A DNA stretch of 26,118 nucleotides from a virus (lineage: Duplodnaviria > Caudoviricetes), in IMG/VR virus record IMGVR_UViG_3300031565_004791, positions 1 to 26,118 of that record, one strand, 5' to 3'. Under the pieces are notes generated by a model. That model saw only the letters and a program-made list of their open reading frames with translations, was not told the origin of the DNA and ran no database searches. The position numbers and the translations under genes are program-made. Positions 13,263-22,729 of this stretch are shown here, piece after piece (position 1 is the stretch's first letter; every line of letters starts with the position of its first letter).

Positions 13263-14516
13263 TCAGATCGCCTGGCTGTTGACGATGCCGGTGAAGAGCA
13301 CGCTGCACGCCGGCTTGAAGCTGACGAGCGCCTGGTCCCACCACTGCCGAAGCTCGAAGCCAGCGTTCGACTCCAGTTCGCGGAAGAACCGCTCTTGCTG
13401 ACCGGTGACGCCGGGGAGCCGGAACGTCAGGTCCGCCGAGCCGACGCGCTTGAAGTAGCGGTCGGCCGTGAGAAAGGCCTCGCCGGCCTTGATCATCGGG
13501 TGCGGCTTGATCTCAATGGTGCCGGTCTGCCCGTAGAACACGAGCTTCTCGGTGCCGAGGTCGGCTTCCATCCGCATCTTCGCCGCGTAGCGCCGGAGCG
13601 CCGCCGCATCGTTGTTGAAGTCGCTCCAGGTGTACGGCGACACGCGGAGCGTAAGCGGCCCGAGACCACCACGGAACGCCGCTCGAGCCGAGCCGCGCAT
13701 GACCTTGGCGAACGTCAGCGCCGCGCCGCCCGCGCCGATGCCGTTGCCGCGCCACAGTCCGTAGGTCGCTGCGTTGATGTTGTGCATCGTGCCCGTGTTC
13801 GGCACAAGCACGCGAAGGCCGTCGAACCACGCCGCGTCCGCCTCGAAGGGGATGACGACGTCGCTCGCCTGGATCGCGTTGTTGTCCGCCACCACGCCGG
13901 TGAGCGTCACCGACCGCGTGTCGAAGTCGACGTTCGAGATGGTGAGCGCGCCGTTCGTGTTGCGCCGCGTGCCGCCGGGCGCGCTGTACACATCGACGCT
14001 CGCGCCTTCCATCTGTGCCCACAGGCCGGGGGCCCAAGACGCCTCGGTGATGACGTACGTCACCGAGGCTGCCGCGGAGCCCGCGCCCGTCAGCGTGCCA
14101 ATCGAGTCGCCACCGTAGAGGATGTTCAGCTCGCGGTAGAACGACATCGAGTTGCGCATGTCGCGGACGACGTCGTCGAACGCCGACCCGAAGGCCTCGA
14201 CGCTGGATCGCGCGCGGCTGACCACGCCATACGCGACCTGCTCGCGCATAACGGCCTGGTAGCCCTTCTCGCGGCCCGGCACAGTCTGGCCGCTGACGAC
14301 CGCGTTGAGCGCGAACGCCGTCGCGGTCTGCCCGCCCCACGTCATGCCATGGGCACGCCGCACGCGGACGTTGAAGACGTATTCGTCGCCGAGCTTCTCG
14401 GACTCCGAGAACACCATGCTCTCGGCGAGGTCACTGAATTCCGGGACGATGTCGCGTCCCTTGGTCTCGTAGCGGTCTTTGAACCAGCCATCGAGCGTAG
14501 TTTCGGTCACGGTCAT
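13263..14516 (-). CDS. Major capsid protein (417 aa)
   Basis: Position after portal and scaffold; size; strongly GC3-biased codons; GGAG RBS; HK97-fold-like pattern (DMRNSMSFYRELNILYGG, HNINAATYGLWRGN, IEIKPHPMIKAGEAF, KPACSVLFTGI). Confidence 0.85.
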   Translation of the reverse strand: MTVTETTLDGWFKDRYETKGRDIVPEFSDLAESMVFSESEKLGDEYVFNVRVRRAHGMTWGGQTATAFALNAVVSGQTVPGREKGYQAVMREQVAYGVVSRARSSVEAFGSAFDDVVRDMRNSMSFYRELNILYGGDSIGTLTGAGSAAASVTYVITEASWAPGLWAQMEGASVDVYSAPGGTRRNTNGALTISNVDFDTRSVTLTGVVADNNAIQASDVVIPFEADAAWFDGLRVLVPNTGTMHNINAATYGLWRGNGIGAGGAALTFAKVMRGSARAAFRGGLGPLTLRVSPYTWSDFNNDAAALRRYAAKMRMEADLGTEKLVFYGQTGTIEIKPHPMIKAGEAFLTADRYFKRVGSADLTFRLPGVTGQQERFFRELESNAGFELRQWWDQALVSFKPACSVLFTGIVNSQAI

Positions 14517-14670
14517 GGTGAAAATCTCCGAGGAAATGCCCGTTTCGGGGCGGTTCTTCGGCTGCCTTCACGTGTCGTGACCGGCTCCGTGGAGCACACC
14601 GGGCCCGAGGGTTACCGGCGGCTCATCGACGAAGCGGGCCCGAGGCTACGGAGCCTTGGGGTTTGTTTGC
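14517..14670 (-). promoter_or_regulatory. Structured 5' leader of the MCP gene
   Basis: 8-bp inverted repeat GGCTCCGT (14583-14590)/ACGGAGCC (14648-14655) enclosing two copies of CGGGCCCGAGG (14600-14610, 14635-14645); small hairpin just before the RBS. Confidence 0.5.
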
Positions 14671-14744
14671 TGCGCACCGCACGGAGTTTAACCGTGTCCG
14701 CGGGGATGCCTCCACCGGGTGCTGACGTTACACCACAGCGCGCA
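14671..14744 (-). ncRNA. tRNA-like cloverleaf RNA (degenerate anticodon arm, no encoded CCA)
   Basis: Acceptor CGCGCUG/CGGUGCG (extends to 9 bp), U8, D-arm GUGU-AACGUCA-GCAC, arm CGGUG-GAGGCAU-CCCCG, 4-nt variable loop, T-arm CACGG-UUAAACU-CCGUG; 70 nt from position 1 to 72. Confidence 0.7.
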
Positions 14745-14780
14745 TGCACACCATGGCACGCCGTGCCGGAGCGTGTCAAG
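14704..14780. repeat. 77-bp direct repeat, copy 1 (promoter + 5' half of tRNA-like RNA)
   Basis: 73/77 identical to 15009-15085 by hand alignment. Confidence 0.95.
14750..14779 (-). promoter_or_regulatory. Sigma70-type promoter for tRNA-like RNA and MCP
   Basis: Perfect TTGACA (14774-14779), 18-bp spacer, TG-n-CATGGT extended -10-like element; predicted +1 falls at the 5' end of the cloverleaf. Confidence 0.55.
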
Positions 14781-14970
14781 CGAGCGTCAGATTCCCGATT
14801 GGGGTGGCGTACTCCTGCGCCTTGTCGATGAACGACCACAGGATGCCGTAAGCGTTGCACGGGATGCCTTTGTGGACGAAGTCGCCTCGCGTTGCAGGGT
14901 CCTCGGTGAGCCAGTTGAGCGCCGCTCGCGCGAGGGTGCAGTCGCCGTCGGTCAGGTGAAGGTCAGACAT
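14776..14970 (-). CDS. Orphan cassette ORF, 64 aa (MSDLHLTDGDC...PIGNLTLA)
   Basis: GAGGA RBS 5 nt upstream, supplied by the duplicated scaffold tail; stop TGA lies inside the TTGACA hexamer of repeat copy 1. Confidence 0.6.
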   Translation of the reverse strand: MSDLHLTDGDCTLARAALNWLTEDPATRGDFVHKGIPCNAYGILWSFIDKAQEYATPIGNLTLA

Positions 14971-15010
14971 CGATGTCCTCGCCGTTGAGGAGCCGCGAGT
15001 ATTGCTCCGG
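14961..15010 (-). repeat. Second copy of the scaffold gene 3' end (PEQYSRLLNGEDIDV-stop)
   Basis: 44/50 identical to 15294-15343; all 6 differences are third-position synonymous in the scaffold frame. Confidence 0.95.
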
Positions 15011-15085
15011 ATGCCTCCACCGGGTGCTGACGTTACACCACAGCGCGCATGCACACCGTGACACGGTGTGCCGGAGCGTGTCAAG
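15009..15085. repeat. 77-bp direct repeat, copy 2 (promoter + tRNA-like 5' half truncated after the anticodon loop)
   Basis: 73/77 identical to 14704-14780; TTGACA at 15079-15084 (minus); contains perfect palindrome GCACACCGTG-A-CACGGTGTGC (15051-15071). Confidence 0.95.
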
Positions 15086-15299
15086 TCGGGCTGATGCCCA
15101 TCGCTCGCCGCAGCATGTCGACCGGGTACAAGCGGCGAAAGAACGCGTCTAGCGCCGCCGGCAGCCCACTCCGATACGCATCCATCGCGTCGCGAGCGTT
15201 CCATACCCTTGCCGCGAGCCTTGCGGGAGGAGCGTGGTTCGCGTACCGGCGCTCTAGCCGGCGCTGACGCTGGAGCCGACGTAGCGCGCGGCGGGTCAT
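15081..15299 (-). CDS. Orphan cassette ORF, 72 aa, Arg-rich
   Basis: ATGA overlap with scaffold stop, GAGGA 9 nt upstream; stop TGA lies inside the TTGACA hexamer of repeat copy 2. Confidence 0.55.
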   Translation of the reverse strand: MTRRALRRLQRQRRLERRYANHAPPARLAARVWNARDAMDAYRSGLPAALDAFFRRLYPVDMLRRAMGISPT

Positions 15300-16234
15300 A
15301 CGTCGATGTCCTCGCCGTTCAGCAGTCGCGAGTATTGCTCGGGCGTGAGCTGCGACGAGTGGATGCGCTTCTTCGGCGCTGCACCCGCTGCCGGGCGTCC
15401 CCCATTGGGCTTCGGGCGCGTCGCGTTTCGGTGTGCTTTGGCCTTCTCGATGTCCTGTTGACGCACCGCGTCGAGCTTGTCGCCGAGGAGCGCACGCAGT
15501 TGGTCCGGGCTCATGTCGCCGAGAAGCGAGCGGCTGTGCGTCGTCATCTCCTCGCGCACGACCTGCACGGCGTCCTCCACCGTGAAGCTGCGGTCGCCCG
15601 CGTCGAAGGCCGCGGCGAGCACCTTGGCCACCTCGGACATCATGCGCTGGCTCTTGGGCAGCCCGGCGCTTTCGAGGCCCTTGCTGATGCTCTCGATGTA
15701 CTTGGCGCGCTCGCGCTTCTCGGCCGCGGACGCCGCCGCTTCCTCGCGCTGGCGCTTCTCGGCTGCCTCGCGGTCGGCAAGGGCCTTTTCGCGCGCCGCG
15801 AGGGCGCGCTCGCGCTTGACGTCCTCCGGCGTGCGCTCCTCGGCCTCGATGAGCTCGCGGAGCTGCCTCGGGTTCACCCCGAGGTGCTGCGCCACGGCGA
15901 GGAGCCCGGCGGGGTCGCGCACGGTGTCGAGGAGCTCCCGCACCTGCGCCTTTTCGGCCTCGGTCTCTTTGCGGAGCCGCGCGGCCTCTTCCATGCGCTT
16001 ATGGCTGGCGCTGCGGAGAGTGTAGTCCCGGAGCGCGTCGCGGGCCTTGATGCGCCTCTGCTCGCCGTCAACGGTGACGGTGACGAAGCGGTCGAGATCC
16101 GCCTCGGTCAGTTCGCCGGTCTCGAGCGCCTCGCGAATCTCGGTCGCGGCCGTCTGCGCGGTTGGCGCGCCGCCTGTCGGTGCCGCGGTGCCTTGCGGCT
16201 CTGCGCCGCCTTCGGTGAATCCCTCGTCGCTCAT
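15296..16234 (-). CDS. Capsid scaffolding protein (312 aa)
   Basis: Between portal and MCP; acidic N-terminus, VTVTVDGEQRRI motif, long charged coiled coils, basic/Pro-rich C-terminal tail; GAGGAGGG RBS. Confidence 0.8.
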   Translation of the reverse strand: MSDEGFTEGGAEPQGTAAPTGGAPTAQTAATEIREALETGELTEADLDRFVTVTVDGEQRRIKARDALRDYTLRSASHKRMEEAARLRKETEAEKAQVRELLDTVRDPAGLLAVAQHLGVNPRQLRELIEAEERTPEDVKRERALAAREKALADREAAEKRQREEAAASAAEKRERAKYIESISKGLESAGLPKSQRMMSEVAKVLAAAFDAGDRSFTVEDAVQVVREEMTTHSRSLLGDMSPDQLRALLGDKLDAVRQQDIEKAKAHRNATRPKPNGGRPAAGAAPKKRIHSSQLTPEQYSRLLNGEDIDV

Positions 16235-21812: not shown

Positions 21813-22729
21813 ATCGCCCTCGCGGCCGCCGGGATCGCATCCTTCGTCAACTCCGCCCATCGTGCCACGACGAAGCCGAGCCGCCACACAAGCGGCTTGC
21901 CTCGGAAGTCCGGCGCGTGCGATGCGTCGTAGAGCTCCCCAAAGCGCCGCATGGCGCCCATCGCGATCGACCGCGCCGCTCGCCCATGGTCGTCCCAGCC
22001 GCGAGCCTCGGACATCTCCGGGGCCAGCTCGAGGACGCGTCGCTCGATGCTCTCGACGTGGGTCAGGTCCCGGCGTCGGTCTGCGTCGGTCGGTCGCATG
22101 CCGCGGGCTCGGCTGACGGCCAGCCATGCTCGCCATGGGAGCTCGAGGCTGCTCACGGTGTCGTACTCGCCGAGGGGGTCCGGGCAGTCGATCGAAGAGC
22201 CCGGTCGCGCACGGGCGCGCGGAGAGTGCGTAGCACTCTCTCTCCTCTCCTCTCCTCTCCTCTCCTCTGTCCGAGTGGTATTGAACGATTGCATAGACTT
22301 AGCTTCGTCACCAGATCCGTCAGAGGTCACGCAGAGGTCCGTCAGAGGCTCGGCAGAGGATCCGCAGAGGTCCGTCAGAGGCTCGGCAGAGGACGACAGA
22401 GGCTTCGCAGAGGCTCGCTTCCGGGCCGTCTTCGTGGTCGCCCCTTCGGCCTGGTAGCGGTCCCATCCTGGCAGGCTGGCGACTCCATGGCTCACCACGA
22501 TGCACCCGTCCGAAAGGAGCTCCTCGACACACCGGCGCACGATGCGGCGCTCATGCCTCTCGACGCCAAGACGGCGACACACCTCGTCGCCAAGCGGCCG
22601 CCCTCCGAGCGTCATCGTGCCGTCGTCCTCCACGAGCTCGGTGAAGATCTCGCGGAACACCGCCCGCGTCAGCGGCGATAGCAGCGCGAAACTCCCAGTG
22701 GCCCGCCACGACCGACGCCACGGCTTCAT
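21809..22729 (-). CDS. Replication initiator (lambda O / replisome-organiser-like), 306 aa
   Basis: N-terminal winged-helix-like region ending LPGWDRYQ; repeat-encoded linker; EERRGEERRE tract; adjacent to DnaB. Confidence 0.7.
   Translation of the reverse strand: MKPWRRSWRATGSFALLSPLTRAVFREIFTELVEDDGTMTLGGRPLGDEVCRRLGVERHERRIVRRCVEELLSDGCIVVSHGVASLPGWDRYQAEGATTKTARKRASAKPLSSSAEPLTDLCGSSAEPLTDLCVTSDGSGDEAKSMQSFNTTRTEERRGEERRESATHSPRARARPGSSIDCPDPLGEYDTVSSLELPWRAWLAVSRARGMRPTDADRRRDLTHVESIERRVLELAPEMSEARGWDDHGRAARSIAMGAMRRFGELYDASHAPDFRGKPLVWRLGFVVARWAELTKDAIPAAARAM
22236..22413. repeat. Putative replication origin: nine phased CAGAGG repeats, AT-richer patch and polypyrimidine tract
   Basis: CAGAGG at 22321, 22332, 22343, 22354, 22365, 22376, 22387, 22397, 22408; 30-bp exact repeat 22331-22360/22364-22393; (TCTCC)5 at 22241-22265. 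Confidence 0.75.

Follow-up and report, generated by a model that had tools for sequence, protein, structure and literature searches.

The window analysed here, a 26,118-nucleotide stretch of tailed-phage DNA, carries, where its capsid transcript is predicted to begin, a tRNA-shaped gene that folds as a cloverleaf, is absent from close relatives of the phage, and belongs to a wider set of phage tRNA genes whose elbow is altered and whose anticodon arm is free. We tentatively interpret this element as a His-type, codon-blind tRNA mimic that would be released by host processing and serve as a decoy in trans.

The genes of this part of the phage genome lie on the minus strand and include those for the small and large terminase, the portal, a scaffold-like protein and the major capsid protein (Table 1). 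Between 93 and 97% of the region's sampled words were present in six soil sequencing runs; no RNA dataset was among the runs listed, which says nothing either way about expression. No cultured phage relatives were found by tblastn with the capsid protein, one homologue of which (63%) sits in a Gemmatimonadaceae MAG, and blastn of the region and of the element against phage and plasmid collections returned chance-level pieces only. Elsewhere in the window, positions 22318-22394 contain at least five tandem 11-nt units, possibly origin iterons, within the ORF 22729-21809 and adjoining a DnaB-like helicase.

Table 1. Coordinates of the features of the capsid region in the window
Feature	Position	Strand	Remarks
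Portal gene	18311-16245	-	
Scaffold-like gene	15296..16234	-	Inferred from its place between the portal and capsid genes; no family match
Optional small gene X	15081..15299	-	72 aa; similar ORF in L002; present in X10, absent from X7 and X11
Second copy of promoter and 5' half of element	15009..15085	-	Half element at 15048-15009; breaks just after the anticodon loop
Second copy of scaffold-like gene 3' end	14961..15010	-	88%; fused to the half element; start of the 305-bp unit
Optional small gene Y	14776..14970	-	64 aa; no family match
Predicted sigma70-type late promoter	14750..14779	-	TTGACA 14779-14774, 18-nt spacer, weak -10 14755-14750
Likely inserted unit	14664..14745	-	Closest relative (run X7) has 4 bases instead of 82, joint 14663 to 14746; X10 and X11 skip the unit too
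tRNA-shaped gene (the element), G-1 to C73	14672..14743	-	Acceptor, D and T arms intact; U19-A56 elbow; deviant anticodon arm; CCA not encoded; His-type marks (G-1:C73, variable loop CGGA)
Capsid mRNA leader	14517..14663 (to 14668 by a wider reading)	-	Retained in relatives with or without a tRNA-like insert; self-contained fold
Major capsid protein gene	13263..14516	-	PHROG 14242, E 5.8e-8; 106 homologues

Structure and detection of the element

The initial annotation gave no strand for the element, which is read from the minus strand with position 1 at 14742, G-1 at 14743 and C73 at 14672. All the letters listed there (U8, A14, A21, G53-U54-U55, A58, C61, the D-loop AACGUCA and the T-loop UUAAACU) were recovered, as were the faults of the anticodon arm, namely the U30.C40 mismatch and a loop GAGGCAU devoid of U33, the absence of CCA and the extension of the acceptor stem by G-1:C73 and U-2:A74. 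An additional deviation had been missed, since the 15-48 tertiary pair is A15/A48 and not Watson-Crick. The A/C-rich linker said to follow the stem does exist, but it starts at A74 itself, and its last part is already found in relatives lacking the element.

All 16 stem pairs outside the anticodon arm are intact (acceptor 7/7, D 4/4, T 5/5), with pair probabilities of 0.75-1.0 whether the element is folded alone or inside the whole leader. The anticodon stem is unstable, its pair probabilities reaching at most 0.46. Taken alone, the folding energy of the element is unremarkable (z -1.4). A strict cloverleaf grammar matched the window once, at the element, versus no match in 300 simulated windows; the shape is beyond chance, which confirms the original observation.

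A low-score or pseudo call had been anticipated. ARAGORN did not call the element at default settings and called it tRNA-Ala(GGC) at a lowered threshold, and the Rfam search did not report it for RF00005 (29-bit cut-off). The best Rfam match was to mascRNA; with 26.1 bits against a cut-off of 42.5, and a partial, shifted register covering 14674-14722 only, membership of that family was rejected. Positions 34-36 read GGC, and the GUG anticodon of tRNA-His is absent. The loop carries G32 and A33, contrary to the Y32-U33 rule on a 5-bp stem. The element thus shares with decoding tRNAs the cloverleaf stems and a Watson-Crick 19-56 pair, without their Y32-U33 loop or a score above cut-off, and with tRNA-His a templated G-1 (G14743) paired with C73 (C14672), without the anticodon. 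Given the missing U33, the weak anticodon stem and the low score, the earlier view that this is not a decoding tRNA is likely correct. The element falls outside the decoding tRNAs, tRNA-His and mascRNA, and looks like a processed tRNA mimic.

Transcription is predicted to start at about 14745-14743, that is at G-1 or the base of the extended stem, and the element occupies this site without harm to the promoter or the leader. A promoter consensus scan found no promoter upstream of the element; of the 19 other loci inspected, 16 have TTGAC ahead of their capsid gene. The placement of the element at the 5' end of the capsid transcript agrees with both the predicted start and this recurrent TTGAC.

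An accessory slot upstream of the capsid gene

Contigs from four of the 20 sequencing runs with a small share of the region were compared at 80% likeness; one run, X8, had no contig across the element. The three informative relatives, from three studies and with flanks 92-98% identical, join the promoter straight to the capsid leader and lack the element. The stretches skipped are 14664-14745 in X7, 14660 to 15050 in X11 and 14660 to 15068 in X10, and the shorter sides of these joints measure 164, 43 and 62 letters, respectively. With differences from the window at only 4 of 164 and 6 of 314 bases of its flanks, X7 split off recently. A canonical anticodon arm would take at least three changes in the element and the other stems none; set beside the few flank differences, this suggests that the element likely arrived already dead.

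The more distant relative L002 (66% identical) has the scaffold gene, a small gene, the TTGAC promoter, the leader and the capsid gene, and no tRNA shape. Homologues upstream of related capsid genes, which the initial annotation had proposed to collect, did not appear: a covariance model built from 37 related genes (these include the element, whose own 63.7 bits are therefore circular) gave nothing above 11.8 bits over 104 capsid loci, comprising 79 viral loci, 77 of them with at least 400 bases upstream, and 25 metagenome loci, 20 of them with as much, some contigs being in both sets. The fold of the capsid leader is the same with or without the element. The proposal of a processing or stabilising element needed by the capsid mRNA is not sustained by these results, and a conserved capsid-mRNA element was rejected, as 3/3 informative close relatives skip it and 0/79 and 0/25 loci match the model. 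Judged from these comparisons, the capsid mRNA does not need the element. A single gain in this lineage is the simplest reading, and repeated loss a less simple one.

The leader itself (window 14517-14668; also L062, L143, L144, L063 and L080) has a hairpin and motif blocks common to relatives between the TTGAC promoter and the ribosome site. It has no Rfam match, and its consensus fold, from 5 sequences, is weak (-6.7 kcal/mol, with many broken pairs). It is a candidate capsid-expression control RNA.

A 77-nt direct repeat (14704-14780 and 15009-15085), overlooked initially, provides a second promoter and a second 5' half of the element. It belongs to a 305-bp unit (window 14704-15009) made of the scaffold-end copy, gene Y, the promoter and the half element. 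In four deep runs the depth of the contig inside this unit was about 0.5 to 0.8 of that of its flanks, so the unit is likely absent from part of the population. As a polymorphic duplication it could collapse between the 77-nt repeats. Tandem amplification of a tRNA gene under defence pressure is described in PMC13096335, but the extra copy in the window is incomplete, and we infer that the half element is most simply a scar left by recombination. The four deep runs, which may represent one population, listed no variant of the full element.

Both small genes are gained and lost among relatives at this slot. Gene Y, for which no relative beyond the same phage was found in viral contigs, encodes 64 aa in the window; three of the four other cluster members have an 83-aa version, compared with which the window's copy lacks about 19 residues near its start. 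The element is likely a recent insertion into an accessory slot that also swaps these two genes.

The 19-56 elbow and the anticodon arm in phage tRNA genes

A pattern based on the element's D-arm (U19 pattern) was found at 42 viral loci, 33 of them distinct, and 31 of these passed an automatic filter on shape. With a narrower G19 pattern, 10 of 64 collection parts yielded 120 loci, 106 distinct, of which 103 passed. A56 occurs in 18/31 U19 genes and in 0/103 G19 genes; when near-identical genes were collapsed into lineages, the counts were 13/22 versus 0/50 (P 7e-9), in line with the earlier suggestion that U19-A56 is compensatory. The reciprocal scan, fixing A56, gave 25 distinct matches, two of which were dropped because they had no stems; of the rest, 19 (the element among them) have U at position 19, 3 have A, 1 has C and none has G. 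Another D-arm family carrying A56, 78 tRNA-shaped genes from 40 of 64 parts with no matched C56 control, had G18-U19 in 45, GG in 18, GA in 14 and GC in 1. The coupling of positions 19 and 56 is strong, not absolute.

When 185,579 cellular genomes were scanned for the U19 pattern, 13 distinct matches were obtained, and the tRNA-shaped ones (10/10) all have C56. Among the phage genes with U19-A56, many encode ordinary tRNAs (His, Gly, Trp, Met or suppressor) within arrays, so the swap does not in itself mark a special role. Neither does the missing CCA, since it is likewise absent from 58 of 100 canonical phage tRNA genes with G19; a reading of this absence as loss of function was rejected on the same count. 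As far as these gene counts go, the swap is genuine, enriched in phages and no obstacle to decoding. The homing endonuclease SegB is described as needing the motif GGTTCRANTCC in tRNA genes (PMC2330249). This motif is broken by C56A, from which we infer that phages may swap the 19-56 pair to escape nucleases that cut tRNA genes. As a separate observation, tRNA arrays of Pyrinomonadaceae/Acidobacteriota (L202, L207, L209, L212 and L216) contain a tRNA-Pro(UGG) with U19 facing C56 and with C33 for U33.

Deviant anticodon arms were flagged automatically in 15/31 U19 genes versus 3/103 G19 genes; by lineage the figures were 10/22 versus 3/50 (P 2e-4). Manual curation of the deviant set removed L057 and added L019. 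Among the 15 flagged genes the acceptor stem had 7/7 pairs in 13 and 6/7 in 2, and the T stems were nearly all perfect. These two stems were not fixed by the search pattern, whereas the D-arm and T-loop were, the class being so defined. The alignment of 37 genes had 94% paired cells in the acceptor stem, 99% in the T stem and 82% in the anticodon stem. The class is heterogeneous: deviant arms are more frequent with C56 or U56 opposite U19 than with A56, and the 19-56 pair is often broken in the group of L020, L030 and L181.

L044 and L056 are syntenic, with about 67% DNA identity. Their orthologous elements both have exactly the D-arm of the window's element, agree with each other in the acceptor and differ by a compensatory T-stem change, with unrelated anticodon arms. 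L030 and L181 have two different anticodon arms in one slot, with 57-58-nt tRNAs without an anticodon arm nearby. The deviant arms beside intact acceptor and T stems, together with the top half kept between L044 and L056, argue that the U19 class is under selection; in arrays, the need for processing could alone preserve the top half.

Several further loci of this kind were encountered. Phage tRNA genes of 57-65 nt with a missing or shrunken anticodon arm lie at 1572-1629 and 2206-2262 of L030, 1572-1636 and 2004-2060 of L020 and 198-254 of L181; they are conserved among related phages and score 44-56 bits on RF00005. In both L056 (ORF at 896-1219) and L044 a small ORF is flanked by the codon-blind tRNA on one side and a CUA suppressor tRNA on the other, with a weak match in L056 to the PTH2 peptidyl-tRNA hydrolase (E 0.057, below cut-off). 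The lone tRNA-like genes at 666-736 of L040 and at 1493-1563 of L048 and of L053 have a common downstream motif and no Rfam family above cut-off. In L040 and L048 the flanking sequences look complementary to each other and include a second hairpin resembling a T arm, as though the gene were part of a larger RNA.

Origin and possible role of the element

The G-1:C73 pair is given in PMC3937112 as the determinant of bacterial tRNA-His for HisRS. It is found without CCA in three other deviant genes (L023, L040 and L048), and the variable loop CGGA with A48 is identical in the element and in the phage tRNA-His genes of L034 and L049, which are canonical and also share its D-arm and U19-A56 pair. 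By its cloverleaf, arms and His marks the element thus resembles the phage tRNA genes of RF00005, tRNA-His with G-1:C73 in particular. Outside the anticodon arm, its nearest canonical tRNA is of the Met type (38/54 positions), overall identity not singling out His, and the T-arm match to the tRNA-His of phage NiceHouse is at chance level (E 2); a His origin is for these reasons only likely.

In the mimic reading, which we hold tentatively, the gene would have been captured recently, arriving already codon-blind. Transcription from the TTGACA late promoter would begin at or just before G-1, and the element would be transcribed first; RNase Z would cut after C73, host enzymes would add CCA, and HisRS might charge the product via G-1:C73. 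The freed, abundant look-alike would then tie up defence proteins that read the acceptor end, the T arm or the D arm and not the anticodon. Competition of viral tRNA with AriB has been raised as a possibility, and D-loop contacts reported, in PMC12409363, while for the OLD nuclease PMC12445682 reports that rescue does not proceed by competitive inhibition. The decoy for anticodon nucleases specifically, as put forward in the initial annotation, is a weak proposal because the loop no longer resembles their substrate. Also against this reading, the element was found in one phage lineage only, and its slot collects scars as well, namely the half copy and the shortened gene Y.

Nearly as likely as the mimic is an inert relic, that is a dead phage tRNA gene acquired through illegitimate recombination and since maintained as a mere passenger, its anticodon arm damaged by nuclease or recombinase strikes or left free in arrays where only processing of the top half is still selected. 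The absence of the element from all relatives examined, the duplication breakpoint just after the anticodon loop and the traffic of small genes at the slot fit such an origin, and SegB-type endonucleases are described as cutting phage tRNA genes (PMC2330249). Against a relic stand the top half conserved with a compensatory change across phages 67% identical, the 16/16 intact stem pairs and the position at the predicted transcription start with promoter and leader unharmed; moreover, the 38.6-kb record, 72% complete, has no match to HNH (PF01844) or tyrosine integrase (PF00589). The lack of an integrase match in this incomplete record also bears on an attachment-site remnant or an assembly artefact, suggested by the repeat in the region and by contig L017, which ends exactly at the repeat; as four runs contain the element and the junction contig without differences, and U19-A56 is found in 0/10 cellular genes of the pattern, making a host tRNA fragment unlikely, we regard this origin as highly improbable.

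A 5'-terminal stem can protect an mRNA from 5'-end decay, and a 5' monophosphate usually speeds it. An optional cis element could act through the uncut 9-bp stem, shielding the capsid mRNA, or through a cut after C73 that creates a new mRNA 5' end. The predicted start at the base of the extended stem, the folding of the element independently of the leader and the small hairpins that L143 and L144 carry at the same place would suit this role, but close relatives manage without any such element, a cut would leave the 5' monophosphate, and a simple hairpin would suffice, the full cloverleaf and compensated elbow being explained by tRNA ancestry; we consider it quite unlikely. Hardly credible is an unusual working tRNA reading GCC (Ala) or rescued by modification: the 7-nt loop is in the right register with a purine at 37, ARAGORN proposes Ala(GGC) at low threshold and canonical phage tRNAs also have U19-A56 elbows, yet G32, A33, U30.C40 and the unstable anticodon stem stand against decoding, and C3-G70 and G4.U69 replace G3.U70, so that anticodon and acceptor marks disagree.

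Among known systems, mascRNA and menRNA (RF01684) are likewise tRNA-shaped, have a weak anticodon arm and form part of a longer transcript, from which RNase P and Z release them; they are eukaryotic and conserved in their place at the 3' terminus of a long RNA, whereas the element occupies a 5' end and close relatives lack it. Staphylococcal non-proteinogenic tRNA-Gly and the Bacillus pseudo-tRNA 'tRNA-Other' are chargeable, with an altered D/T-loop consensus, and work outside normal decoding; they are cellular and have known or proposed pathways, whereas this phage shows no obvious partner pathway. Phage T4 RNA species I and II are not known to have a decoding role. These RNAs, which according to PMC2330249 are matured from a precursor transcript that also contains tRNAs, sit in a tRNA array like other stable, non-decoding RNAs from phage tRNA clusters, in contrast to the full-size cloverleaf at a late promoter found here. 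The nuclease-resistant phage tRNAs, T5 tRNA-Lys against PARIS and T-even tRNA-Thr against P2 OLD, are reported to rescue translation and to keep U33 and the cognate anticodon (PMC12445682, PMC12409363), unlike the element, which has no U33 and is a solitary gene at the capsid promoter, outside any array. No description of U19-A56 phage tRNAs or of codon-blind phage tRNA mimics was found in the titles and abstract openings listed by full-text literature searches, with subscription journals little covered. The available portions of PMC2784084 and PMC6409571 added nothing on such tRNAs or the class, and the tRNA list of the latter may include genes of this type.

A bolder version of the mimic reading, which we think unlikely as a whole, would make the element one of a widespread, uncatalogued phage class of codon-blind tRNA mimics, broadly defined by intact acceptor, D and T arms, a U19-A56 elbow and a free or missing anticodon arm. 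Such mimics would be mobile accessory genes jamming tRNA-targeting defences, with a histidine-chargeable one placed at the start of the capsid transcript and made in bulk when capsid protein would trigger defences.

As ARAGORN at default settings and RF00005 miss the element and other members of the class, tRNA-shaped RNAs that do not decode are likely underrepresented in catalogues of phage tRNAs. Sister phages that differ by the exact 82-bp insert offer a clean natural comparison of whether a codon-blind tRNA helps a phage against tRNA-targeting defences. If the element is a relic, the elbow result still holds: many phage tRNA genes have U19-A56 in place of the near-universal G19-C56 pair, a swap present in 0/10 cellular genes of the pattern.
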